64,000 bases of DNA from Candidatus Saccharimonadota bacterium (GTDB lineage: Bacteria; Patescibacteriota; Saccharimonadia; Saccharimonadales; UBA10212), in assembly GCA_016187125.1 (NCBI GenBank), contig JACPKF010000001.1, positions 302,178-366,177 of the forward strand, given 5' to 3'. The notes under the pieces were generated by a model. That model ran no database searches. It saw only the letters and a list, made by a program, of their open reading frames with translations, and was not told the DNA's origin. Below, in pieces: positions 1 through 63,998 of this stretch. Position 1 is the stretch's first letter; each line of letters starts with the position of its first letter. Made by a program: the position numbers and the translations under genes.

Positions 1-1404
1 AATGCCGCTACCAAAAACTTGGTTGATTTTGTTGGCGGTGTCGGGCATGAAAGGTACTAAAAGAGCCGCTATTTCTATGAGATTGGCCACAATCGTGGCC
101 AGTACCTCGCGCAGGTGAACTTCATCTTTTCCGCCAGCTGGCGGATTAGCTATTTCCCATGGCTTGGCCTCATCGATATATTGATTAAGTCCTTTGACCT
201 GTTCCCAGACTACATCTAGGGCCTTGTCAAACCGGCAGTTATCAATAGCCCGGCTGTAAGCGGCAACATCATGCTCCGGCGACGGAATATCACCGATCAA
301 ACCATTTTGATACTTAGCTATCATGGCGGCGCTGCGACTTATGGCATTGCCTAGCTGATCGGCCAGTTCATTGTTGTAGGCCGCTTCCATCATCTCCCAA
401 GTAAAATCGCCGTCACTATAACTGGGGATGTGCCTCAGGAAAAAATAGCGGAAGGCCTCAACACCGTACTTATCAACTATGTCCAGCGGGTCCACTACAT
501 TGCCTAGGGTTTTACTCATTTTTTTGCCGCCGCTGGTTACAAAGCCATGGACATAGAGCGCTTTTGGCAAAGCTAGTCCCAGTCCAAGTAGCATTCCTGG
601 CCAAACAGCCGCGTGAAAACGCAAAATATCCTTGCCGATGACCTGCATATCAGCCGGCCAATATTTTTTAAAGTCCGGATGCTCCGGATAACCGATTACG
701 CTAATGTAGTTCATCAGGGCTTCAAACCAGACGTACATAGTTTGGGTCGGGTCACCCGGTACCGCAATACCCCAACCTATCTTGTCTTTAGGGCGGCTGA
801 TGGAAATGTCTTGCAGGCCCTCGCCTATAACTGCCAGAATTTCGTTTTTTCTGGACTTTGGGATAATCCGATACTGATCTTTTTCAATCGCATCTTTGAT
901 TTTAATGGCATATTTACCGAGCGCGAAAAAATAATTTTCTTCCTGGATCTTTTCATATGGCCGATTATGCAGCGGGCAAATACCATTAGTTTCCTTTACG
1001 TAAGCTTCGGTTTTGAATTCTTCGCAGCCGACACAGTACATACCAACGTAAGCTTTTTTATAAATGTCCGCCGCTAGAGCTTTCCAGATCAGCTGGGCTC
1101 TTTGTTCGTGACCGGCGTCGGTGGTTCTGATAAAACGGTCGTTGCTAATTTCCAGTTTTTTAAGTCCTTCGCGGAACTTGGCGCTTATTTCATCGACAAA
1201 TTGTTTGGGCGGCAGGCCGGCTTTTGCTGCGGCTTCGGCAACTTTACCGCCGTGCTCGTCGGTTCCGGCACTAAAAAGTACATCATCGCCGAGCTGCCGG
1301 CGGTAACGAGCCAGCACATCGCCATATAAATGGAGCAAGGCATGGCCAAGATGCGGCTTATCATTGACATATGGAATAGCCGTAGCAATGTAGAATTTTC
1401 TCAT
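1..1404 (-). CDS. metG: methionyl-tRNA synthetase, C-terminal part cut by window edge
   Basis: Absent from the ORF track because it runs off the left edge. The minus frame from the ATG at 1404 reads MRKFYIATAIPYVNDKPHLGHALLH (class I HIGH motif). It also has a CVGCEEF...CPLH zinc knuckle and GGKKMSKTLG (KMSKS loop, about 505-535). The frame stays open to nt 1. Plus-strand ORFs 613..1077, 1102..1329 and 1121..1306 are antisense artefacts. Confidence 0.9.
   Translation of the reverse strand, partial: MRKFYIATAIPYVNDKPHLGHALLHLYGDVLARYRRQLGDDVLFSAGTDEHGGKVAEAAAKAGLPPKQFVDEISAKFREGLKKLEISNDRFIRTTDAGHEQRAQLIWKALAADIYKKAYVGMYCVGCEEFKTEAYVKETNGICPLHNRPYEKIQEENYFFALGKYAIKIKDAIEKDQYRIIPKSRKNEILAVIGEGLQDISISRPKDKIGWGIAVPGDPTQTMYVWFEALMNYISVIGYPEHPDFKKYWPADMQVIGKDILRFHAAVWPGMLLGLGLALPKALYVHGFVTSGGKKMSKTLGNVVDPLDIVDKYGVEAFRYFFLRHIPSYSDGDFTWEMMEAAYNNELADQLGNAISRSAAMIAKYQNGLIGDIPSPEHDVAAYSRAIDNCRFDKALDVVWEQVKGLNQYIDEAKPWEIANPPAGGKDEVHLREVLATIVANLIEIAALLVPFMPDTANKINQVFGSGI
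130..145. repeat. F3 palindrome TCCGCCAGCTGGCGGA (inside metG)
   Basis: Exact 16-mer, translated as NPPAGG on the minus strand. Confidence 0.9.
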
Positions 1405-1449
1405 CCGTCTAATTGTAACCTGTTAAAAACATAAAAAGAAGGCGCCGCT

Positions 1450-1908
1450 TTAAGTTGAGAAAAACTGGCCAACAACTCTTTCAAAGCCCGGCACAAGCTT
1501 GAGCTTGCCAATTTCCCCGGGAGTGAACCAATTGGCCTCCGATGCCTCGGAGTTGAGTTGGAACTTACCCGTTTTTATGCGCACTAAAACCGGCACCACT
1601 ATCCAGGTCTTTTTATAATCGGCCGCCTCTTGCAAAAAAACCGTGCCCTTTTTAATCTCCAGAATATCTGATTTGTTCAGTCCCAACTCCTCGGCCAATT
1701 CTTGAATAACTTTTTGGGCAATATCCAGATCATCGTCCAAAAAGCCAGATATACCATTCCAATAGCTAGGATAAAAACGCATTTTTGGACTGCGTTTTAC
1801 CAGTAGAATTTTATCGTCTTTGCTTACCACCGCATTAACAACCGGGCTGTAGCGAGCACTAGAGTAATCTACTTGGCCAGACTTCGGTGCAAATTTGGGC
1901 TCTGTCAT
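1450..1908 (-). CDS. NUDIX hydrolase
   Basis: 152 aa. Nudix-box-like segment SGFLDDDLDIAQKVIQELAEELGL (GX5EX7..ELXEEXG pattern). Confidence 0.75.
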   Translation of the reverse strand: MTEPKFAPKSGQVDYSSARYSPVVNAVVSKDDKILLVKRSPKMRFYPSYWNGISGFLDDDLDIAQKVIQELAEELGLNKSDILEIKKGTVFLQEAADYKKTWIVVPVLVRIKTGKFQLNSEASEANWFTPGEIGKLKLVPGFERVVGQFFST

Positions 1909-6905: not shown

Positions 6906-6952
6906 CTCTCACATGTTTAGTTTTAGGTAACCTAAAACTAAACATGTGAGAG
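6906..6952. repeat. 47-nt near-perfect palindrome (23-nt arms, 1-nt centre)
   Basis: CTCTCACATGTTTAGTTTTAGGT a ACCTAAAACTAAACATGTGAGAG. It lies between the 7052 gene stop and the 6826 gene start, and a T-run follows on the plus strand (caggttttttt). Confidence 0.8.
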
Positions 6953-18508: not shown

Positions 18509-18551
18509 GTCTTGCGACTATTTTATCCTATCATAAGGAGTTGACACCTGT

Positions 18552-18578
18552 CTGCTACAAGGATTATCCTTGTAGCAG
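18552..18578. repeat. REP family F1 palindrome, left flank of RAYT-1
   Basis: CTGCTACAAGGATTATCCTTGTAGCAG ends on the base before the ATG at 18579. Confidence 0.9.
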
Positions 18579-19208
18579 ATGCCGCTAAAAAATGTCGTTA
18601 AGGAGTTTGTGGCTGAAAGCTACTACCATGTTTACAATCGTGGTGTCTATAAACAGAATATTTTTACCCAGGAAAGAGACTATACTGCCTTTTTAAGTCT
18701 TCCTAAACGACATCTATCTAGAGAACCAGCTCAAGATCACACTAGGCGACCACTCCCTCATTTACGTAATGATGTGGAATTATTAGCATATTGCCTAATG
18801 CCAAGCCACTTTCATCTCCTTATATACAACAAAAAAGAGTCTGGTCTGACCGACCTGATGAGAAGCATGATGACAGCCTATAGCAGATACTTTAACAAAA
18901 CCCATAAACGAAAAGGCGCCCTGTTTGAGTCGTCATATAAGGCTAGCTTGATTGATAATGAAGCTTACCTATGGCATATCAGCCGTTATATTCACCTTAA
19001 TCCTCAAGACCTAGGCTCCAAATATATTTCTTACCCCTACTCTAGTTATGCTTATTACATGGGTAATAAAAAAGCCGAATGGATTAACCCAGAAAGAATA
19101 TTAAAGATGCATGGCGACGAATTGAGTGATTATGCGAGTTTTGTAAAGGATTACGAATCAATGCGCGCTGAGCTCCAGCAACTTAAACTTTATCTAGCAG
19201 ACCACTAG
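18579..19208 (+). mobile_element. IS200/RAYT-type HUH-Y1 transposase-like protein (RAYT-1)
   Basis: 209 aa: YYHVYNRGVYKQNIF..RDY..FL, LAYCLMPSHFHLLIY (HUH), FESSYKASLID, SRYIHLNPQDLG (Tyr region). Flanked on both sides by the F1 palindrome. Confidence 0.8.
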
Positions 19209-19251
19209 TTGCTACAAGGATTATCCTTGTAGCAATTGTAGCAACTAGTGG
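19202..19251. repeat. REP family F1 palindrome, right flank of RAYT-1 (nested hairpins)
   Basis: GCTACAAGGATTATCCTTGTAGC at 19211-19233 sits within CCACTAGTTGCTACA ... TGTAGCAACTAGTGG. Confidence 0.9.
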
Positions 19252-23008: not shown

Positions 23009-23056
23009 TGTGATAGCTTGTGATAGGTTGAACCTATCACAAGACCTATCACAAAT
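23009..23056. repeat. REP family F2 palindrome, flank of RAYT-2 (stop side)
   Basis: TGTGATAGCTTGTGATAGGTTGAACCTATCACAAGACCTATCACA, with the core at 23020-23040. It overlaps the RAYT-2 stop codon. Confidence 0.9.
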
Positions 23057-25148: not shown

Positions 25149-25170
25149 ATAGTGGATTGTAAACTTTGAT

Positions 25171-25206
25171 ACCCCACTTTTGGTCCGATCGGACCAAAAG
25201 TGGGGT
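25171..25206. terminator. 36-nt perfect palindrome between convergent murD and murI (bidirectional terminator-like)
   Basis: ACCCCACTTTTGGTCCGATCGGACCAAAAGTGGGGT. Confidence 0.75.
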
Positions 25207-25226
25207 AGTTTGATTGCTATCTTAAA

Positions 25227-38903: not shown

Positions 38904-39473
38904 TCAGCTGCTCTTGATTTCGTCCGAGCTAGAACTATCCGGGGCGATGAGTTTGTTGGGTAGCTTAAGAATATTCTTTTCGGTTTGGGAAAGCGTCAGC
39001 TGCAAAATTTGCAGGACGCTTTTAGCATGCTCGCGACTCATGCCGATTTTGGCTACTACCGCCGGCTGGGTGCCTGAACCGGTGTTCTGCATAAAGTTCA
39101 TTACAACCCCGTAATTATTGACAATCACATCAACTATATCGGTAAACAAAACGTGATCATTGTTGCCCGCTGCCACTTGGTTATCCAGAGTGCTGGCGCT
39201 GCCCATATGCGACATGGGGATTTTGCTCATATTATAACCAGCCAGATCCCAGAGTTTAATCGCTTCGTCGTCCTTTACGCCAAAGTGACTAAGCAGTAGC
39301 AGTAGCACGTCTTCGCTGGGCCGAGCTTGGCCAAGTTCAAAACTAGCCAGCTGGCGGACATCAATTTCTACGGCTCCGGAGGCCTCGGCTAAAGTTTCAT
39401 TAATTTGACCACGCAGCTCTTTGAGTCGTCTGCCGAGGGGTTTAAACGGACTTGAGGCTTGAGGTTTATCCAT
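38904..39473 (-). CDS. XRE-type HTH domain protein
   Basis: The start is taken at MDKPQAS (ATG 39473, abutting TIR element C). HTH: LGRRLKELRGQINETLAEASGAVEIDVRQLASFELG. Confidence 0.65.
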   Translation of the reverse strand: MDKPQASSPFKPLGRRLKELRGQINETLAEASGAVEIDVRQLASFELGQARPSEDVLLLLLSHFGVKDDEAIKLWDLAGYNMSKIPMSHMGSASTLDNQVAAGNNDHVLFTDIVDVIVNNYGVVMNFMQNTGSGTQPAVVAKIGMSREHAKSVLQILQLTLSQTEKNILKLPNKLIAPDSSSSDEIKSS

Positions 39474-39576
39474 CCCGTTAGAACTCACTCAACTTCCGCA
39501 CCTTTGTTAAGGATTGAACACGTGTGCTTACTTCAACGTATTGATAAATATTGTAGGTCTTTTGAGGTCTAACGGA
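39474..39576. repeat. 103-nt TIR element, copy C (MITE-like)
   Basis: The ends are CCCGTTAGAACTCA ... TGAGGTCTAACGGA. Its reverse complement aligns end to end with copy A. The left end touches the ATG at 39473. Confidence 0.8.
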
Positions 39577-39704: not shown

Positions 39705-40733
39705 ATGAATATACAGGAAAATGTTGATCTCAAAGCCCACAGTACGATGCGCCTTGGGGGCAAAGCCCACTATTTGGCTGAGGCTGACTCTGAAACCAGA
39801 GTCAAAAATCTAGTCAACTGGGCCAATACCAGAAACTTGCCGGTGATCATGATTGGTGAGGGTAGCAACATCATCTGGCAGGACGAGGGCTACCAAGGAC
39901 TTGTTATTGTCAACAAGATTCCTGGAATCAAAATAGCCGCTGAAGATGATAAGAATCTGACCATAAAAGCCGGCGGCGGCGAAATGTGGGACAAAATTGT
40001 CGAATGGAGTACAAACAAGAATCTCACCGGCATCGAGTTTTTATCTCGGATCCCCGGTTATGTTGGGGCAGCACCAGTCCAGAACATTGGCGCCTACGGC
40101 GCCGAACTTAGTGATGTGCTGGTTGAGCTAGAGGCTTACGATACCAATTTACGAAAATTTGTAACTTTAGCTAACAAAGATTGCGCCTTCGCTTACCGAA
40201 CCAGCCGGTTCAAAACGGTTGATAAAGGCAGATTTCTAATTACCTCTGTTACCATTAAGCTAGCTAAATCCAGTCCCAAACCGCCGTTTTATGAATCGTT
40301 GCAAAATTACTTGGACGAACACAAAATCCGAGACTATAGTCCAAGGACCATACGCCAGGCGGTGACTGAAATCCGTAAAATTAAATTGCCGGATCCATCA
40401 GTGGTAGCCAACAATGGTTCGTTTTTTACCAATCCGATAATCAACAAGCTCAAATACCAGAAGTTAAAAGCTGATTTTCCAGAAATAAAGGGCTGGGGGC
40501 ATAGTGACGGCCAAATAAAAATTGCGGCTGGATGGATGGTTGAGAAAGCTGGTTTTAAAGACTTTCACGATAAAAAGACAGGCATGGGCACTTGGTGGGG
40601 TTCGGCTCTAGTTATGATTAATGAGGAGGCTAGGACGACGGCCGATTTGTTAGCCTTCAAGCAAAAGATTGTCAGTAAAGTCTATGAGATGTTCGGCATT
40701 ATACTTGAGCAAGAACCAGAACTCTTGCCTTAA
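39705..40733 (+). CDS. murB: UDP-N-acetylenolpyruvoylglucosamine reductase
   Basis: 342 aa: HSTMRLGGKA, GEGSNII, FAYRTSRFK, AGWMVEKAGFKD. Confidence 0.88.
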   Translation: MNIQENVDLKAHSTMRLGGKAHYLAEADSETRVKNLVNWANTRNLPVIMIGEGSNIIWQDEGYQGLVIVNKIPGIKIAAEDDKNLTIKAGGGEMWDKIVEWSTNKNLTGIEFLSRIPGYVGAAPVQNIGAYGAELSDVLVELEAYDTNLRKFVTLANKDCAFAYRTSRFKTVDKGRFLITSVTIKLAKSSPKPPFYESLQNYLDEHKIRDYSPRTIRQAVTEIRKIKLPDPSVVANNGSFFTNPIINKLKYQKLKADFPEIKGWGHSDGQIKIAAGWMVEKAGFKDFHDKKTGMGTWWGSALVMINEEARTTADLLAFKQKIVSKVYEMFGIILEQEPELLP

Positions 40734-40754: not shown

Positions 40755-40894
40755 CCCCGCACCAAAACCTGAGCGAAGCAGTCGGTAATCCAGCACATTT
40801 TCATCTCTTATCGCAATCTGATTGCTGACTGCTCAAAAACAGGAAAATATGCGGGACAGGTCGGATTGTGGAGCATCAAGCTTTTGGTGCGGGG
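40755..40894. repeat. structured repeat family F5 (copy 4, 140-nt expanded form)
   Basis: The outer stem CCCCGCACCAAAAC / CTTTTGGTGCGGGG encloses GCAGTCGGTAATCC ... GCAATCTGATTGCTGACTGC. The right arm encodes the last residues (DPAPKA) of glyA. Confidence 0.7.
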
Positions 40895-42153
40895 TCGCTG
40901 GGTAGCGGGAACTTTTTACAGAATTCGCCGATTTGCTTATTTAGCCTGGTAAGTATTTTTGCGTCACTGGCGCTGCTAATAGCTTCGTCAATCCAGCTGG
41001 CTATTTGGACCATCTCCTTTTCTTTCATGCCTCTGGTGGTTATAGCCGGAGTGCCCATACGGATACCAGACGGACTAAACGGTGACCGAGGATCAAAAGG
41101 CACGGTATTTTTATTAACCGTTATGCCGGCTTTGCTAAGAGCTTTTTCGGCGTCGGCGCCAATAATTTTTTTATTTGTCAGATCAATTAACAACAGATGA
41201 TTATCGGTGCCGCCGGTGACTAATTTGTAGTCCTTTTTAAGAAGTTCTTCGGCTAGGATCTTGGCATTTTTTACAATCTGCCGGCCATATTGCTTGAAGC
41301 TCGGCTGGGCGGCCTCGCGCAGGGCCACGGCAATAGCCGCTGTCTGATGGTTATGAGGACCACCTTGCAAGCCTGGAATAATCGCCCGGTCTATTAAAGT
41401 TGGCAGGTTTTCCGGTCGGCGTTCAGCAGCTTTTAGCGGATTAGAAGGGTTGCCGTTGCATAAGATCATTGCTCCCCTGGGGCCACGCAGCGTTTTATGA
41501 GTAGTAGTCATAACTACATGTGCTTGGCCGACTGGCGAAGGATGGGCTCCAGCTACTACCAGGCCAGCTATATGTGAAATGTCGGCGATTAACCACGCTC
41601 CCGATATGTCGGCGATCTCCCGGAGTCTTGCCCATTCGAATATCCGGGGATAAGCAGTCGCGCCCACAAAAATCAGTTTTGGTTTTTCGGTTTTAACCAT
41701 TTTTGTCATCTCCCCGTAGTCCAGGTAACCGTCTTTTCCGGTATGGTATTGGACTGAGCGGTAGTAGGTGCCGGAAAAATTAACCTTCAGGCCATGTGTC
41801 ATATGGCCGCCGAAATACAAGTGCATACCCATGACTGTATCGCCAGGGTCAACCAAGGCAAAATAGATGGCTTGATTGGCCGGCGAGCCGGAATACGGCT
41901 GAACATTGGCATGAGATACACCAAATAAGGCCTTGGCTCTATCGCGCGCCAGGTTTTCTACGGCGTCCACGTATTCGCAACCTCCGTAGTAACGCATACC
42001 CGGATAGCCCTCCGAATATTTATCAGTCAGACGAGAACCAAGCGCTTTTAGGACATCGGCGGAAGTATGATTCTCGCTGGGAATCATCTCTAAGCCTTCC
42101 CGTTGCCGCTTGCCCTCAGCCGCAATTAACTTTTCTATTTCTTTATCATTCAT
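40876..42153 (-). CDS. glyA: serine hydroxymethyltransferase
   Basis: The start is taken at MNDKEIEKL (ATG 42153). Motifs: LEMIPSENH, RYYGGCE, TTTTHKTLRGPRG (PLP Lys). Confidence 0.9.
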   Translation of the reverse strand: MNDKEIEKLIAAEGKRQREGLEMIPSENHTSADVLKALGSRLTDKYSEGYPGMRYYGGCEYVDAVENLARDRAKALFGVSHANVQPYSGSPANQAIYFALVDPGDTVMGMHLYFGGHMTHGLKVNFSGTYYRSVQYHTGKDGYLDYGEMTKMVKTEKPKLIFVGATAYPRIFEWARLREIADISGAWLIADISHIAGLVVAGAHPSPVGQAHVVMTTTHKTLRGPRGAMILCNGNPSNPLKAAERRPENLPTLIDRAIIPGLQGGPHNHQTAAIAVALREAAQPSFKQYGRQIVKNAKILAEELLKKDYKLVTGGTDNHLLLIDLTNKKIIGADAEKALSKAGITVNKNTVPFDPRSPFSPSGIRMGTPAITTRGMKEKEMVQIASWIDEAISSASDAKILTRLNKQIGEFCKKFPLPSDPAPKA

Positions 42154-42248
42154 AGCAAACTCCCAGGAGCTACATACCGCATCAGCTTGCACAGCTTGTC
42201 AGAGCCAGCAGCTCCGCCGATGCTCTTGGCAAATCGCGTTGTTGCCAT
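42150..42248 (-). CDS. possible 32-aa leader ORF coupled to glyA
   Basis: Not in the track. GAAGGAG lies 8 nt before the ATG at 42248. Translation: MATTRFAKSIGGAAGSDKLCKLMRYVAPGSLL. Its TGA overlaps the glyA ATG (ATGA). Confidence 0.35.
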   Translation of the reverse strand: MATTRFAKSIGGAAGSDKLCKLMRYVAPGSLL

Positions 42249-42437
42249 CTGCGCTGCTCCTTCAATGTATTTGAATACATCTAAGTCCGCTGCTCGCTGG
42301 CGCCTAGCGATTTACCCAAGTATGTACCTCCTCTACCTTTAATCTTTAATATTTGAGTTGATTTTTAGGTAGCTAGATCATAACTTTATTGTACAGCTAA
42401 GTGGCTAGATATTAAGTTGTAATTTATTCTTACCGCC

Positions 42438-42483
42438 TCATTTCCTAATAGATTATGCGATCGCATAATCTATTAGGAAATGA
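42438..42483. promoter_or_regulatory. 46-bp perfect palindrome upstream of the HTH-MurA gene (candidate operator)
   Basis: TCATTTCCTAATAGATTATGCGA|TCGCATAATCTATTAGGAAATGA. It is followed by TTGACG-16 nt-TATCAT and then the ATG at 42550. Confidence 0.6.
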
Positions 42484-42549
42484 TAGTTATGATCGAAGCC
42501 GACGATTTACTTGACGCTTATATCACGTGTGATATCATCATAGGGTTTT

Positions 42550-44073
42550 ATGCACGAAACTAATCAGAAAATTGGCCGGCTTATTTACCAAATCCGCCAA
42601 GAGCGAGGCTTAACTCAAGCCGCTTTTGCTAAAAAACTGGGTACTAGCCAATCAGCCGTTAATCGCATTGAGCATGGCAAGCAGAATTTAAGCCTCGATA
42701 CTCTAGGCCGTATTAGCGATGCTTTGAACAAACAAATTGTCAGCCTTGGCGGCCAGGGTGTAAACCTACGTATTGAAGGTGGACAGGAGCTTAAGGGCGA
42801 AGTTACGCTGAAAAAGAGTAAAAACGCCGCGGTGGCGATTTTGTGCGCTAGCTTGCTCAATAAGGGTACGACTCATCTTAAAAACGTGCCGCGGATTGAA
42901 GAAGTAAACCGGATTGTGGAAGTTTTAACCAGCATTGGAGTCCACGTGCGTTGGGTAGGCACTAGCGATATGGAGATAAAAGTGCCAGCCAGGCTTGACC
43001 TGGATAATATAGACAAAGCGGCGGCCCGTAAAACCAGAATTGTAATCCTGTTGGCCGGCGCCTTGATGCACGACCTGAGCGAGTTTAAAATTCCTTATGC
43101 CGGCGGCTGCGAGATAGGTAAGCGCAGCATCCTGCCGCATATTTACGCTTTGGAAGAATTCGGCGTGCACATTGAGGCCCATAAAGGCAATTACCATATC
43201 AGCGTCAAGCGGCACCTGCCTGATGGCCCGGTAATTTTATATGAATCCGGTGACACCACCACCGAAAATGTTATTTTGGCAGCCGCCCGCATGGAAGGCG
43301 AAACTGTTATAAAAATGGCCAGCGCCAATTACATGGGACAGGAGCTGTGTTTCTTTTTACAAAAACTCGGCGTCAAAATCGAAGGTATCGGTACAACCAC
43401 GCTTCGGATTAGAGGCCTCAAAAATATTAAGCGCCATGTGACTTACTGCCCAAGCGAAGATCCGGTAGAAGCCATGACTTTCATTGCCGCGGCTGTTACT
43501 ACCGATTCTTCTATTACTATTCGGCGGGCGCCAATTGAATTTTTAGAACTTGAGCTTTATAAGCTAGAAAAAATGGGTCTAAAATTTGATGTTTCCAAAA
43601 CATACAAAGCCGAAAACGGCTCGACTGATTTAGTTGATATAACCATTCATAAACACAATGGCGAACTGCAAGCGCCCGAAGAAAAAATTTACGGCCGCCC
43701 CTACCCCGGCCTAAACATTGATCACGTACCCTACTTCGTGCCGATTGTGGCTTGTGCCAAAGGTCGCAGCCTGATTCATGACTGGGTCTATGAGGACCGG
43801 GCTCTGATGTATACCGAGATGAAAAAGATTGGCGTTGATTTAGAGCTGGCTGACCCGCACCGAGTTTTTATAAACGGCCCGACACAGTGGCGGGCGGCGG
43901 ATGTTGTAGCTCCCAGTGGCCTGCGCCCGGCGGTAATTTTGCTGATCGGCATGTTAGCCGCCCCCGGCGTCTCGATGCTGCGCAATGTCTATACCATCAA
44001 CCGCGGCTACGAAGAACTAGCCGCCAGGTTAAATGATCTGGGTGCTCAGATTAGCGTCATGCACGACATCTAA
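42550..44073 (+). CDS. murA: XRE-HTH domain fused to UDP-N-acetylglucosamine 1-carboxyvinyltransferase
   Basis: 507 aa. Residues 1-65 form an HTH: IGRLIYQIRQERGLTQAAFAKKLGTSQSAVNRIEHGKQNLSL. The remainder is MurA-like: LRIEGGQELKGEVTLKKSKNAAVAILCASLL...NVPRIEEV, with catalytic loop YAGGCEIGKRSILPHI. Confidence 0.8.
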   Translation: MHETNQKIGRLIYQIRQERGLTQAAFAKKLGTSQSAVNRIEHGKQNLSLDTLGRISDALNKQIVSLGGQGVNLRIEGGQELKGEVTLKKSKNAAVAILCASLLNKGTTHLKNVPRIEEVNRIVEVLTSIGVHVRWVGTSDMEIKVPARLDLDNIDKAAARKTRIVILLAGALMHDLSEFKIPYAGGCEIGKRSILPHIYALEEFGVHIEAHKGNYHISVKRHLPDGPVILYESGDTTTENVILAAARMEGETVIKMASANYMGQELCFFLQKLGVKIEGIGTTTLRIRGLKNIKRHVTYCPSEDPVEAMTFIAAAVTTDSSITIRRAPIEFLELELYKLEKMGLKFDVSKTYKAENGSTDLVDITIHKHNGELQAPEEKIYGRPYPGLNIDHVPYFVPIVACAKGRSLIHDWVYEDRALMYTEMKKIGVDLELADPHRVFINGPTQWRAADVVAPSGLRPAVILLIGMLAAPGVSMLRNVYTINRGYEELAARLNDLGAQISVMHDI

Positions 44074-44799: not shown

Positions 44800-45090
44800 T
44801 CATCCTTCGCCAGCCCAGGATTTGCTCCTGCTTAATTCTACTAACTTACTCCCGTCTCTATTGGTTAAAGCTTGCTTCTTAGCTTTTGACCAACCCTTGA
44901 GTTGCCGCTCTCTGTTCTCGGCATCAACTCATGTATTGAACTTTTCACTATAAACGTACTCAATTTTAGAATATCTTTTTGTATGTAACGATTGTTTATT
45001 CTGATACTGTGAAACACGTCGCCCTAAATTATCAGTCAGCCCAATATAATAGCTTTGATCGTTACAAAGAAGAATATATATGTAAAACAT
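44800..45090 (-). pseudogene. GIY-YIG family gene with one in-frame TGA
   Basis: MFYIYILLCNDQSYYIGLTDNLGRRVSQYQNKQSLHTKRYSKIEYVYSEKFNT*VDAENRERQLKGWSKAKKQAL... The stop is at 44929-44931. Not in the track because it is split. Confidence 0.7.
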
Positions 45091-46608: not shown

Positions 46609-47274
46609 ATGAACAAATATAGAGCAGAGGCGGAGAAGTTGAGAAAAGCGGGCTATTCATACAACATGATTACCAATGCTCTAGGTATATCCAAAGGGAC
46701 TATGAGCTATTGGTTTAAGGATAAACCATTCACACCTAATAAGAAGGTCCTTGAAAGAATTAAATATGGTCCGATAAAATCTGGTGCCAGGAGTCATAAT
46801 AGACGAGTTAAAGAAATTGCAGACTTAAAAGAGCTGGGCAGAAAAGAGCTTGGCGAAATATCAAAGAGGGACTTATGGCTGCTTGGATTAGGATTGTATA
46901 TTGGTGAGGGCAGCAAGACAACCGAGAGTATAAGGATCATAAATTCGGATCCGGCCATTATTATTACTGGTATTAGGTGGCTAAGAGAAATTTGTAATCT
47001 ACCACTAAATAATATCGTTATTAGACTTCATATCTATCCTGATACAAATAAACAAGAGGCTATTAAATTCTGGCGATCTATAACTGACATTCCGAAGAAG
47101 AATTTTCGCAATCCAACAATTGATCATCGAACGGATAAAAAATCAAAAAAAACTGGTAAATTGCCTTACGGTACAGCACACATTATGGTCATTACAAATG
47201 GTGATCCAGAAAAAGGGGTAAAACTGTATAGAAGAATTAATGGCTGGATTGCCGGAGCATTAAATCAGCTATAG
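46609..47274 (+). CDS. HTH + LAGLIDADG-like homing-endonuclease-like protein (tentative)
   Basis: 221 aa, AT-rich. N-terminal HTH: AGYSYNMITNALGISKGTMSYWFK. WLLGLGLYIGEGSK resembles a single LAGLIDADG motif. It ends 13 nt before tRNA-Gly. Confidence 0.4.
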   Translation: MNKYRAEAEKLRKAGYSYNMITNALGISKGTMSYWFKDKPFTPNKKVLERIKYGPIKSGARSHNRRVKEIADLKELGRKELGEISKRDLWLLGLGLYIGEGSKTTESIRIINSDPAIIITGIRWLREICNLPLNNIVIRLHIYPDTNKQEAIKFWRSITDIPKKNFRNPTIDHRTDKKSKKTGKLPYGTAHIMVITNGDPEKGVKLYRRINGWIAGALNQL

Positions 47275-62474: not shown

Positions 62475-62978
62475 TTATTTTTTGGGTTTAGTTATATTTG
62501 GCGGCGAGCCATATGCAGGTACAGCGATTTTGTCTCCGCCAGCTGGCGGATTGCCGGCAAGTAAATCTTCAATCCCTTCCTGTATCCAACCTTGGCCTCT
62601 ACGCGCGACTATCGGAATATGGTTGGCAGAAGCCAAGGCATTGGCGACAGTCAGGCCAATCCGCAGGCCTGTAAAACTGCCCGGGCCTTTGAAGCAAACG
62701 ATTCCCTGGATATCATTCCAACAAACATTTGATTTGTTAAGTAATCTCTTAATTTGGGAATGAATAGTCTTGGATAACTCCAGATGGGCTTGCCATTTAA
62801 GCTGGCCGAGCTTTTTTTTGTCGTCATTGTGAAAGGTCCGTCCTTTCACACTATATAAATACAGCTCGGCCTGATGCTTATCGGTCCTAATTCCTAAGAT
62901 AGCTGTGCCCCGCTCCTTTTCAGGGTGGAGCAGTCGGTAATCAGATTGTGGAACACCTTGAAAAGGTGCGCGGGTCAT
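62475..62978 (-). CDS. tsaB: tRNA t6A biosynthesis protein TsaB (N-terminal domain type)
   Basis: KGPGSFTGLRIGLTVANALA. The ATG at 62978 overlaps the tsaE stop (ATGA). The first ~24 codons are encoded by an F5 repeat, and the C-terminus contains the F3 palindrome. Confidence 0.8.
   Translation of the reverse strand: MTRAPFQGVPQSDYRLLHPEKERGTAILGIRTDKHQAELYLYSVKGRTFHNDDKKKLGQLKWQAHLELSKTIHSQIKRLLNKSNVCWNDIQGIVCFKGPGSFTGLRIGLTVANALASANHIPIVARRGQGWIQEGIEDLLAGNPPAGGDKIAVPAYGSPPNITKPKK
62535..62550. repeat. F3 palindrome TCCGCCAGCTGGCGGA (inside tsaB)
   Basis: Exact 16-mer, translated as NPPAGG on the minus strand. Confidence 0.9.
62908..62974. repeat. structured repeat family F5 (copy 5) inside the tsaB 5' end
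   Basis: CCCCGCTCCTTTTCAGG-GTGGAGCAGTCGGTAATCAGATTGTGGAAC-ACCTTGAAAAGGTGCGCGGG. Confidence 0.7.
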
Positions 62979-63634
62979 GGGCGCAGCTCCTGCCAGCTAG
63001 TTTCCAGTTTTCGCACAAGTGCGGCTTTTGTTTCCGGATAACTGATCTTAATCTCCCTTTCCTCGGAATCATTGGCGATGGGTTTAAATTCAATTGTTAG
63101 TCTTTGCTCGGGTAAAACGTTTTGGACGATGTCGCTCCACTCCACGACCGTGACAACACACGGATTCTTTAATGATTCCACCAATTGGTCGGCCATTATG
63201 CCGGCGTCGTTCAGTCGGTAAAAATCAAAGTGGTGCAGCTCAACCCCTTTTTTACATTTATAAATTTGATTAAGGGTAAAGGTCGGACTGGAAACTATGT
63301 CTTGGCTACCCAAACCGCGGACCAGGCCACGCACAAATGTGGTTTTGCCGCCGCCTAAATCCGACCGAAGTTCTATAACCTCTTCGCCTATCGCACCGCT
63401 ACCCGGCCATCTACCCGAGGCAGATGCACCGGCAGCTCTTGGCAGATTGGTGTGTTGCCTGCTGTGGTACTCAGTCCCTGTACCAATTTGTATAGTTCCT
63501 TCCGTTCCTCGTCGGCGTCTTGCACTGCGCTCAAGTGCGACAGGCTCATGCTCATTAGTCTTAAGAAGGCTTCCTAGCAGTTCGCCGAGTCTCTCGGTAT
63601 CTTCTGAACTGGTAGAAACGGTTTGCCAAATCAT
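62975..63634 (-). CDS. tsaE: tRNA t6A biosynthesis ATPase TsaE with a ~56-aa in-frame insertion
   Basis: SSEDTERLGELLG ... (insertion) ... VIELRSDLGGGKTTFVRGL. The start is taken at MIWQT and is uncertain. Confidence 0.75.
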   Translation of the reverse strand: MIWQTVSTSSEDTERLGELLGSLLKTNEHEPVALERSARRRRGTEGTIQIGTGTEYHSRQHTNLPRAAGASASGRWPGSGAIGEEVIELRSDLGGGKTTFVRGLVRGLGSQDIVSSPTFTLNQIYKCKKGVELHHFDFYRLNDAGIMADQLVESLKNPCVVTVVEWSDIVQNVLPEQRLTIEFKPIANDSEEREIKISYPETKAALVRKLETSWQELRP

Positions 63635-63998
63635 CGCGGTACTCATATGCTGCATATGCTACTGCCAGAGCCCCGACTCCGGCAAGTACCAAGGGGTGAA
63701 GATTCCGAGAAGTTGTGGCCGGTGTTAATTTATTATTGCTAAGGGTACTAGAGGTATTAGTCGGGCTAGTAGCTTTGGCTTTCGGAGCAGCGGCCGCGTT
63801 AGTTTTTGCTGCCGGTGTAGCGGACTTCTTAGTAGCTGAGGCTACAGATGAAGGAGTAGTAGAAGGAGAACCAACGCTAAGAGATTTAATGCTCAACGGT
63901 TGGACAATAATATTGGCGGCGTTGGGCGTCGCACTACTTGTCCAATACCATTTGCCGTTTGCCAGTGACCAGCTTTGGCCGTCTTTGGCAGAGCTATA
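63561..63998 (-). CDS. hypothetical protein, N-terminus beyond window edge
   Basis: The frame is open from the right edge: ...YSSAKDGQSWSLANGKWYWTSSATP...; Ala/Thr/Ser-rich linker; TM segment HPLVLAGVGALAVAYAAY. The track shows only the TTG-started part (63561..63896). Confidence 0.55.
   Translation of the reverse strand, partial: YSSAKDGQSWSLANGKWYWTSSATPNAANIIVQPLSIKSLSVGSPSTTPSSVASATKKSATPAAKTNAAAAPKAKATSPTNTSSTLSNNKLTPATTSRNLHPLVLAGVGALAVAYAAYEYRDDLANRFYQFRRYRETRRTARKPS

Follow-up and report, generated by a model that had tools for sequence, protein, structure and literature searches.

A helix-turn-helix domain fused to MurA across candidate phyla radiation bacteria, and a conserved promoter palindrome that may serve as its operator

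Introduction

MurA catalyses the first committed step of peptidoglycan synthesis and is the target of fosfomycin. Its known control consists of feedback by UDP-N-acetylmuramic acid (UDP-MurNAc) and, in Firmicutes, of proteolysis involving ClpCP and ReoM; to our knowledge neither mode involves a built-in DNA-binding domain. Here we analyse a murA gene whose product, termed HTH-MurA below, carries a helix-turn-helix (HTH) domain of the XRE family ahead of the enzyme. The gene lies in a 64,000-nt (64-kb) stretch of Candidatus Saccharimonadota bacterium (assembly GCA_016187125.1, contig JACPKF010000001.1, positions 302,178 to 366,177), referred to as the window, and all unlabelled coordinates are window positions. 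A preliminary description of this DNA had suggested direct autoregulation of murA, or transcription control by substrate sensing, through a 46-bp perfect palindrome upstream of the gene. That regulatory idea was probably right in outline, and the palindrome proposed as operator was very probably the wrong one: comparative evidence favours autoregulation, with the probable site being a 16-bp palindrome inside the promoter that had gone unnoticed.

The closest described systems are the trigger enzymes, or enzyme-repressors, which reportedly include BirA (a biotin ligase with a winged HTH), PutA (a ribbon-helix-helix domain joined to proline dehydrogenase) and NadR. As in these, a single HTH-MurA polypeptide holds an intact enzyme and an N-terminal DNA-binding domain, and a palindromic, putatively cognate site lies in the promoter of its own gene (in the described systems, of the own gene or pathway). 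If the parallel extends further, the ligand state of the enzyme would set DNA binding. The domains themselves are unrelated (an XRE HTH and an enolpyruvyl transferase fold, without homology to BirA, PutA or NadR), the step under control would be the first committed one in peptidoglycan synthesis, and HTH-MurA is phylum-wide in the candidate phyla radiation (CPR) and not restricted to a few model organisms.

The DNA-binding half invites comparison with the phage 434 and lambda cI-type repressors, which belong to the same HTH family. The string TSQSAVNRIEHGKQN in helix 3 of HTH-MurA parallels TTQQSIEQLENGK, which we take to be the corresponding string of the 434 repressor. The proposed operator, like theirs, falls within 14–17 bp, has two-fold symmetry with about one helical turn between the half-site centres, and overlaps the core promoter; such a two-fold symmetric site at the promoter, as expected for an XRE factor, was found across a set of 162 loci. 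The murA transcript would moreover be leaderless or nearly so, like that of cI from its maintenance promoter PRM. HTH-MurA differs from these repressors in having no C-terminal dimerisation or cleavage domain and instead a 436-aa (amino acid) enzyme after a linker of about 8 aa. It also differs in that one operator was detected and no tripartite array, with a second site at +142 in a few Parcubacteria-type loci.

Results and Discussion

An XRE domain joined to a complete MurA

The HTH-MurA gene occupies positions 42550–44073 on the forward strand (507 aa plus a stop codon). Open reading frame (ORF), translation and two Pfam domains agree on this, and they uphold the preliminary description of a complete HTH that continues into a full MurA with the loop AGGCEIGKR. 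A protein identical at 100% is present in NCBI under the name MurA of Candidatus Saccharibacteria. The XRE/Cro-C1 HTH domain (aa 12–63; 42583–42738, forward strand) matches HTH_3 (PF01381; E 4e-16, 59.2 bits against a cut-off of 23) and contains the putative recognition helix TSQSAVNRIEHG. On the same strand it is followed by a short variable linker (aa 64–71; 42739–42762) and by the MurA domain (UDP-N-acetylglucosamine [UDP-GlcNAc] enolpyruvyl transferase; aa 72–507; 42763–44070), in which EPSP_synthase (PF00275; aa 76–491, E 1e-42), the two-domain enolpyruvyl transferase fold, is matched at full length. The protein also passes the NCBIfam model of the MurA subfamily NF006873 (326 bits, cut-off 297), and it stays below the cut-offs of the MurA equivalog TIGR01072 (311 bits against 392.7) and of NF009470 (223 against 552). 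By domain criteria, HTH-MurA belongs to both the XRE HTH and the MurA families.

Matches to MurA in PDB reach E 5e-50 with the GGC aligned, and Foldseek comparison with MurA structures gave TM-scores of 0.84–0.90 (normalised to target length); 3swd, 3su9 and 8d84, which relate to UDP-MurNAc feedback, are among these matches. No solved structure of the fused form was found among the PDB and Foldseek matches. An AlphaFold (AF2) monomer model (predicted local distance difference test [pLDDT] 86, predicted template modelling score 0.80) has a standard MurA body, an N-terminal domain of four helices (residues 2–59) and a low-confidence linker, with pLDDT <50 at residues 65–68. HTH-MurA thus shares with canonical MurA (Escherichia coli, Enterobacter cloacae, Gram-positive MurAA) the fold, the Cys115 loop and the equivalents of K22, R120, D305 and R397, and departs from it in its identity of about 25–29% in the structural alignments, its sub-equivalog score and the extra N-terminal HTH.

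Residues K91, C187, R192, D391 and R485 align to Lys22, Cys115, Arg120, Asp305 and Arg397 of the E. coli enzyme (the Cys187 codon, within the MurA domain, is at 43108–43110). All five are invariant in 80/80 Saccharibacteria species, and the equivalents of the Cys, Arg120 and Arg397 are kept in 113 of 120 Parcubacteria-type homologues. With its catalytic site intact, the enzyme is predicted to be catalytically competent. Among the same 80 Saccharibacteria species, sequence pairs are on average 81.5% identical in the HTH and 74.3% identical in MurA, against 48.9% in the linker. The HTH is therefore more strongly constrained than the enzyme domain, and both halves of the fusion look functional. 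Neither the window nor the flanks of 84 Saccharibacteria loci contained a second murA.

Distribution of the fusion

Both domains are present, at about 507 aa, in all 120 best matches from a collection of 5.8 billion proteins; where these carry a name, it is UDP-N-acetylglucosamine 1-carboxyvinyltransferase of Candidatus Saccharibacteria. In a scan of one genome per GTDB species, a relative is encoded in 472 genomes, the best 80 of which match residues 1–507 and are labelled Saccharibacteria, Saccharimonadales or Patescibacteria, save two or three evidently mis-binned titles of metagenome-assembled genomes (MAGs). The preliminary description had treated the fusion as real while naming a sequencing frameshift or mis-assembly, which would join a small XRE gene to murA, as the way in which it could fail. 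The junction occurs in 120/120 of the best matches and 80/80 of the best species genomes, is kept in frame in hundreds of independent NCBI, JGI, ENA and Logan assemblies, and is found also in complete Nonomuraea genomes, which leaves such an artefact a vanishingly small probability.

The fusion extends well beyond Saccharibacteria. Among cluster representatives at 50% identity, full-length fused proteins were found down to 32% identity, the nearest representative (56% identity, a 246-member cluster) being from cultured Nonomuraea (Actinomycetota), whose proteins are named 'helix-turn-helix domain-containing protein' or MurA in RefSeq. A distant fused protein used as query yielded at least 1801 matches at E ≤ 1e-30, and its top 120 are all two-domain proteins of Paceibacterota/Parcubacteria, Doudnabacteria and related CPR groups. 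The fusion is common to the CPR and not peculiar to the source genome. These sequences indicate that it is the usual form of MurA in Parcubacteria-type CPR bacteria, and that it is genuine, old and under strong selection. Unfused close relatives exist as well (P0123, P0125–P0156).

The actinomycete locus (L088; Nonomuraea phyllanthi CP045572.1, 4282–8657) has the HTH-murA gene 16 nt after a formyltransferase/enoyl-CoA hydratase fusion gene and has a phage-type integrase downstream of HTH-murA. Its product is 56% identical to the Saccharibacteria protein, yet the gene is fully adapted to 70% G+C. This locus suggests an old gene exchange between CPR bacteria and actinomycetes.

Whether the architecture is already common and annotated in relatives, a proviso of the preliminary description, has two answers. 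The architecture itself is already known to databases, which hold thousands of CPR proteins and the RefSeq entries of Nonomuraea, mostly annotated as plain MurA; in the literature searched, no paper describing an HTH-MurA fusion was found, nor its function. The apparently new elements are the conserved operator, the distribution across the CPR and in actinomycetes, and the pseudo-enzyme paralogues described below. For annotation, this means that thousands of plain 'MurA' entries should count as two-domain proteins.

A conserved palindrome within the murA promoter

The murA promoter (42511–42538, forward strand) consists of a −35 element TTGACG (42511–42516), a TG extension (42530–42531) and a −10 element TATCAT (42533–42538). 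The call of TTGACG-16-TATCAT in the preliminary description was right: it matches 10 of 12 consensus positions in addition to the TG and is the best sigma-70-like match of the region in a promoter scan. The −10 and the TG are conserved across loci. Since only 11 nt separate the end of the −10 from the ATG, the murA transcript is predicted to have little or no leader.

Between the −35 and the extended −10 lies a 16-bp perfect palindrome, ATATCACGTGTGATAT (42520–42535, no strand), which we propose as the HTH-MurA operator. When the 80 nt before the start codon of 81 Saccharibacteria loci were right-aligned, a motif ATAYC-N6-GRTAT emerged that begins 27–30 nt before the start codon in these loci; the ATATCACGTGTGATAT site is its sole match in the window. 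In 737 kb of Saccharibacteria loci the strict form of the motif has 49 occurrences, all of them (49/49) no more than 60 nt upstream of HTH-murA, and the remaining 32 loci have 8–9 of the 10 motif positions at the same place. The site is found in other lineages also. Parcubacteria-type metagenome loci carry ATATCATATATGATAT, ATCTCATATATGAGAT, ATAGCATATATGCTAT or ATACCATGCATGATAT, loci L090 and L093 carry ATATCATATATGATAT and ATATCAAATATGATAT, respectively, and in Nonomuraea phyllanthi, in a locus of 70% G+C, ATCTCATATGTGAGAT stands 28 nt before the start.

The site was scored over the 162 loci, which represent three lineages and have it about 28 nt ahead of the start codon, and over 774 control windows. 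A score of 8/8 was reached in 80 of the 162 loci and in 3 of the 774 controls, and a score of 7/8 in 47 and 37, respectively. Variants at the two variable positions of each half-site come in pairs (AT/AT in 47 loci, AC/GT in 23, CT/AG in 10 and AG/CT in 10), and palindromy is perfect through the centre in 26 sites. The perfect centres and the symmetric covariation fit recognition by a two-fold symmetric protein, not a hairpin. The site is also specific to this gene. In 1.08 Mb there are 63 strictly symmetric sites: 52 within 115 nt upstream of HTH-murA, three slightly farther upstream (probably start-codon miscalls), eight within the part of the gene that codes for the HTH (+142 or +172, in a few related loci), and none anywhere other than in HTH-murA or its upstream region. 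Within the window, a search allowing one mismatch gave 6 matches where 4.9 were expected, none of them at murB or other cell-wall genes; it gives no sign of a regulon there.

The palindrome could instead be mere promoter architecture (an extended −10 with a favoured spacer), or the site of another regulator, with the HTH doing another job such as nucleoid tethering or protein-protein contact. Such a reading draws on the coincidence of the right half-site with the extended −10 (TGnTATAAT) and on the fact that the link between HTH and site is one of co-occurrence. We consider it unlikely, because the left half-site, which falls in the promoter spacer where sigma-70 promoters say little, holds 1.0–1.7 bits per position, and because the roughly 990 other TGRTAT sites in the same DNA mostly score 1–2 of 5 on the left half. 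Symmetric covariation of the half-sites argues against it as well. In addition, the −10 hexamer shifts by 2 nt against the palindrome between lineages (TGATATAAT vs TGAGATATAAT), so the palindrome is not simply the −10, and the site accompanies the gene into a 70%-GC actinomycete while occurring nowhere else in the 1.08 Mb.

The sites inside the coding region take two forms. Six loci (L153, L161, L164, L165, L169 and L171) have ATATCAG(C/T)CTTGATAT at +142, and two others (L148 and L167) have ATTTCA...TGAAAT at +145 and +172 of the HTH-murA start. These coding-region sites, some 170 bp downstream from the promoter operator, may be auxiliary operators or may simply result from the codons of a conserved I-S-x-L-I peptide.

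MurA as a putative trigger enzyme

The architecture, its conservation, the intact catalytic residues and a gene-specific, symmetrically covarying palindrome in the promoter are observations. From them we infer that the HTH recognises the palindrome, that it thereby represses transcription and that its binding responds to ligands. We think it likely, on this comparative footing, that HTH-MurA is a bifunctional trigger enzyme that represses its own transcription via the 16-bp operator, possibly in a ligand-responsive manner. The N-terminal XRE HTH would bind ATATCA-N4-TGATAT as a dimer; as this palindrome takes up the spacer that separates −35 and extended −10 in the gene's own promoter, occupancy would block RNA polymerase and the resulting negative autoregulation would let MurA set its own level. 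The ligand state of the MurA body, whether it holds UDP-GlcNAc, phosphoenolpyruvate (PEP) or UDP-MurNAc, may modulate DNA binding, and transcription of the first committed peptidoglycan step would thereby be tied to precursor supply. The MurA body switches between open and closed states, with large domain closure, on binding these three ligands, and structures of MurA ligand complexes are among the Foldseek matches. Ligand control of DNA binding by HTH-MurA is plausible in view of that closure.

Several points weigh against autoregulation through the 16-bp site. The connection of HTH and palindrome rests on their co-occurrence, and the right half-site, which overlaps the extended −10, owes some of its conservation to the promoter. 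MurA enzymes are, as far as we know, generally monomeric, and the AF2 monomer offers just a flexible linker and no evident route to HTH dimerisation. Recognition-helix residues follow the operator variants only loosely: AT sites go with N or A at position 38, most CT sites with P and AG sites with A, and Nonomuraea and locus L036 keep N there despite a CT site. The search for further operators and for a second murA covered the window and the locus flanks. Coupling of helix and operator at position 38 was considered separately as a sign of contact; it is suggestive and confounded by phylogeny, and hence was not taken as evidence.

A subclade of catalytically degenerate paralogues bears on the regulatory role. 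In P0128, P0133, P0143, P0146, P0151, P0175 and P0202 the Cys loop and other catalytic residues are lost and the HTH is kept. In two loci (L090, 1624–4503; L091, 1558–4530) such degenerate paralogues stand back to back with an unfused, catalytically intact murA-murB operon, with ddl or mur ligase genes downstream of the paralogue. The operator lies in the short shared intergenic region, where it is perfect in L090 and degenerate in L091. This subclade points to a regulatory role tied to peptidoglycan precursor genes, and degenerate HTH-MurA looks like an enzyme fold recruited as a sensor domain.

A broader proposal, which we offer tentatively and with some doubt, is that throughout the CPR MurA senses ligands and represses its own gene: whether UDP-GlcNAc, PEP or UDP-MurNAc occupies the active site would be read out directly at a 16-bp operator in a leaderless promoter. 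Host-dependent bacteria could in this way match wall synthesis to scavenged precursors without a separate regulator, the paralogues that lost catalysis would be MurA-fold transcription factors for the adjacent murA-murB, and the module would have passed between CPR bacteria and actinomycetes, Nonomuraea among them. A MurA that carries its own strongly conserved DNA-binding domain together with a matching operator would in any case add a third, direct and transcriptional mode of control to feedback inhibition and regulated proteolysis, and this mode would prevail in a very large and mostly uncultured section of the bacterial tree. Nonomuraea provides a cultivable organism for the genetics of HTH-MurA.

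The 46-bp palindrome between glyA and murA

The 46-bp perfect palindrome is present as the preliminary description gave it, at 42438–42483 (no strand, centre GCGATCGC), between the divergent glyA and murA promoters. Its two arms of 23 nt (42438–42460 and 42461–42483) are 100% complementary without a loop, and it ends 66 nt before the murA ATG. Each of three independent Logan assemblies with the identical gene breaks off within the palindrome, 96 nt upstream of the ATG; a k=31 graph breaks at perfect palindromes, and thus the 46-mer is independently present in those samples.

The role first assigned to the 46-mer was that of the operator for control of transcription by HTH-MurA, with or without bound ligand. 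The palindrome is certainly highly non-random (unique in the window, with 0/100 shuffles giving a match and a predicted single-stranded DNA hairpin of −19.5 kcal/mol, z = −11), and it lies near both −35 elements, 27 nt from that of murA and 22 nt from that of the divergent glyA. Two related loci might also speak for such a function: in L007 a 36-bp perfect palindrome of other sequence, again centred on GCGATCGC, lies equally far away (65 nt), and L005 has only TTAACGATCGTTAA in the same spacer. However, the 46-mer is missing in the nearest relatives L084 (89% protein identity), L004, L006 and L086, though their HTH recognition helix is identical, and it contains no ATAYC/GRTAT half-site such as the conserved motif has. 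Its arms share nothing with those of L007 beyond the centre, its 24-nt core has no exact match in the JGI metagenome collection, and five other long perfect palindromes stand at unrelated places in the window. We therefore judge it very improbable that the 46-mer is the operator.

We regard the 46-mer, judging by its distribution among relatives, as a recent lineage-specific palindromic insertion or repair product that is not part of the conserved murA circuit. In a more specific form, this would be a small mobile palindrome, for instance one like the repetitive extragenic palindromic (REP) elements, or the product of palindrome-generating repair at a CGATCG site, in a hypervariable spacer and without a role for murA; here we see the chances as even. 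The glyA-murA spacer shows large insertions and deletions among relatives with 85–89% identical proteins and in L085 and L087 holds a repeat of about 150 nt. A 35-bp palindrome upstream of murA in L053, with the core TACAAGGTTGAACCTTGTA, resembles the palindromes that flank a transposase gene in the window (see below), and of the six perfect palindromes in the window whose arms reach 13 nt or more, three or four are at gene 3' ends. Against an insertion stand the lack of a second 46-mer copy in the window, even with 3 mismatches per arm, the lack of sequence similarity to the transposase-flanking palindromes, and the fact that no target-site duplication or clean empty site is definable. The GCGATCGC centre shared with L007 at the same position would also be odd for independent insertions. 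As in systems of REP elements and their associated tyrosine transposases (RAYTs), the 46-mer is an extragenic perfect palindrome in a genome with a palindrome-flanked Y1 transposase; unlike REP elements, it is single-copy in the window, and the many copies typical of REP/REPIN elements were found neither there nor in the JGI metagenomes. A local role is conceivable, for example in binding some other protein that acts on the glyA and murA promoters alike.

Other candidate identities were rejected. The GCGATCGC centre occurs once in the window, about the chance expectation, which does not fit an iterated motif like the highly iterated palindrome HIP1. The 46-mer does not read as an intrinsic terminator, having 30% G+C and no T run and lying between two divergent promoters. 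No Rfam family accounts for it or for the ~150-nt repeat: searches at the gathering threshold on the whole window, and in E-value mode on 42100–42600, L085 and L087, gave only tRNAs and meaningless miRNA hairpin matches on the palindrome.

Neighbouring genes and repeated elements

The divergent neighbour of murA is glyA (40876–42153, reverse strand), encoding serine hydroxymethyltransferase (E 8e-160), which adjoins murA in L084–L087 also. Its predicted promoter, TTAATA-16-TACAAT (42388–42415, reverse strand; promoter scan), overlaps a block conserved in relatives. The glyA leader region contains the repeated non-coding element of about 150 nt (42183–42340, reverse strand; nhmmer E 4e-39), bracketed by a 13-nt inverted repeat (42165–42177 and 42320–42332). 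Further copies occur at 63417–63540 (reverse strand) in the window, at 658–799 in L031 and at 1293–1450 (forward strand) in L085 and L087. Copies are about 125–155 nt long, share the strings GCGAGnAGCGGAC, GTATTnAAATAC and TTGAAGGAGCAnCGCAG, and vary in orientation and context (glyA leader, glyA-murA spacer, XRE-murB spacer); what lies in the spacer of L085 and L087 is found inverted, next to glyA, in the window. The element could be a miniature inverted-repeat transposable element (MITE)-like mobile element or a leader RNA.

The second window copy lies within the tsaE ORF (62975–63655, reverse strand), which exceeds the Pfam TsaE model by about 75 aa. With an nhmmer envelope of 156 nt, divisible by three, this copy appears to have been inserted in frame into a coding gene, in a manner that recalls Rickettsia palindromic elements.

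At 18551–19235, an ORF of 209 aa (18579–19208) matches the IS200-like Y1 transposase family (E 8e-12) and is flanked exactly by the near-identical perfect palindromes TCTGCTACAAGGATTATCCTTGTAGCAGA and TTGCTACAAGGATTATCCTTGTAGCAA, with tRNA-Glu adjacent. Transposase and palindromes together are like a RAYT/REP arrangement. Beyond the 46-mer, the five perfect palindromes of the window have arms of 13–23 nt, and three of them lie downstream of gene ends, at 6906–6952, 23017–23043 and 25170–25207 (arms of 23, 13 and 19 nt, respectively). The last stands between convergent genes and has the centre CCGATCGG. These three may be terminators without a T-tract or REP-like elements.

A palindrome of another kind was seen in one MAG, where 58 bp of perfect palindrome (L023, 3988–4045) lie inside the murA coding sequence, in a match that exceeds the usual length by about 24 nt; a fold-back artefact of assembly is the most likely cause.

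The second XRE protein that the preliminary description had placed divergent from murB is indeed encoded there (38904–39488, reverse strand; 194 aa, HTH_31 E 3e-7; murB at 39705–40733, forward strand). The pair is conserved in distant Saccharibacteria-like genomes (L031, 45–1854; L093, 1–1413), and its intergenic region holds no copy of the murA operator. The 194-aa protein may be a separate regulator of murB.

Lastly, two small ORFs beside tRNA genes look by eye like homing endonucleases: one (46609–47274, forward strand) has a LAGLIDADG-like GLYIGEGS string and is without a Pfam match, and the other (44929–45090, reverse strand) has a GIY-YIG-like start.

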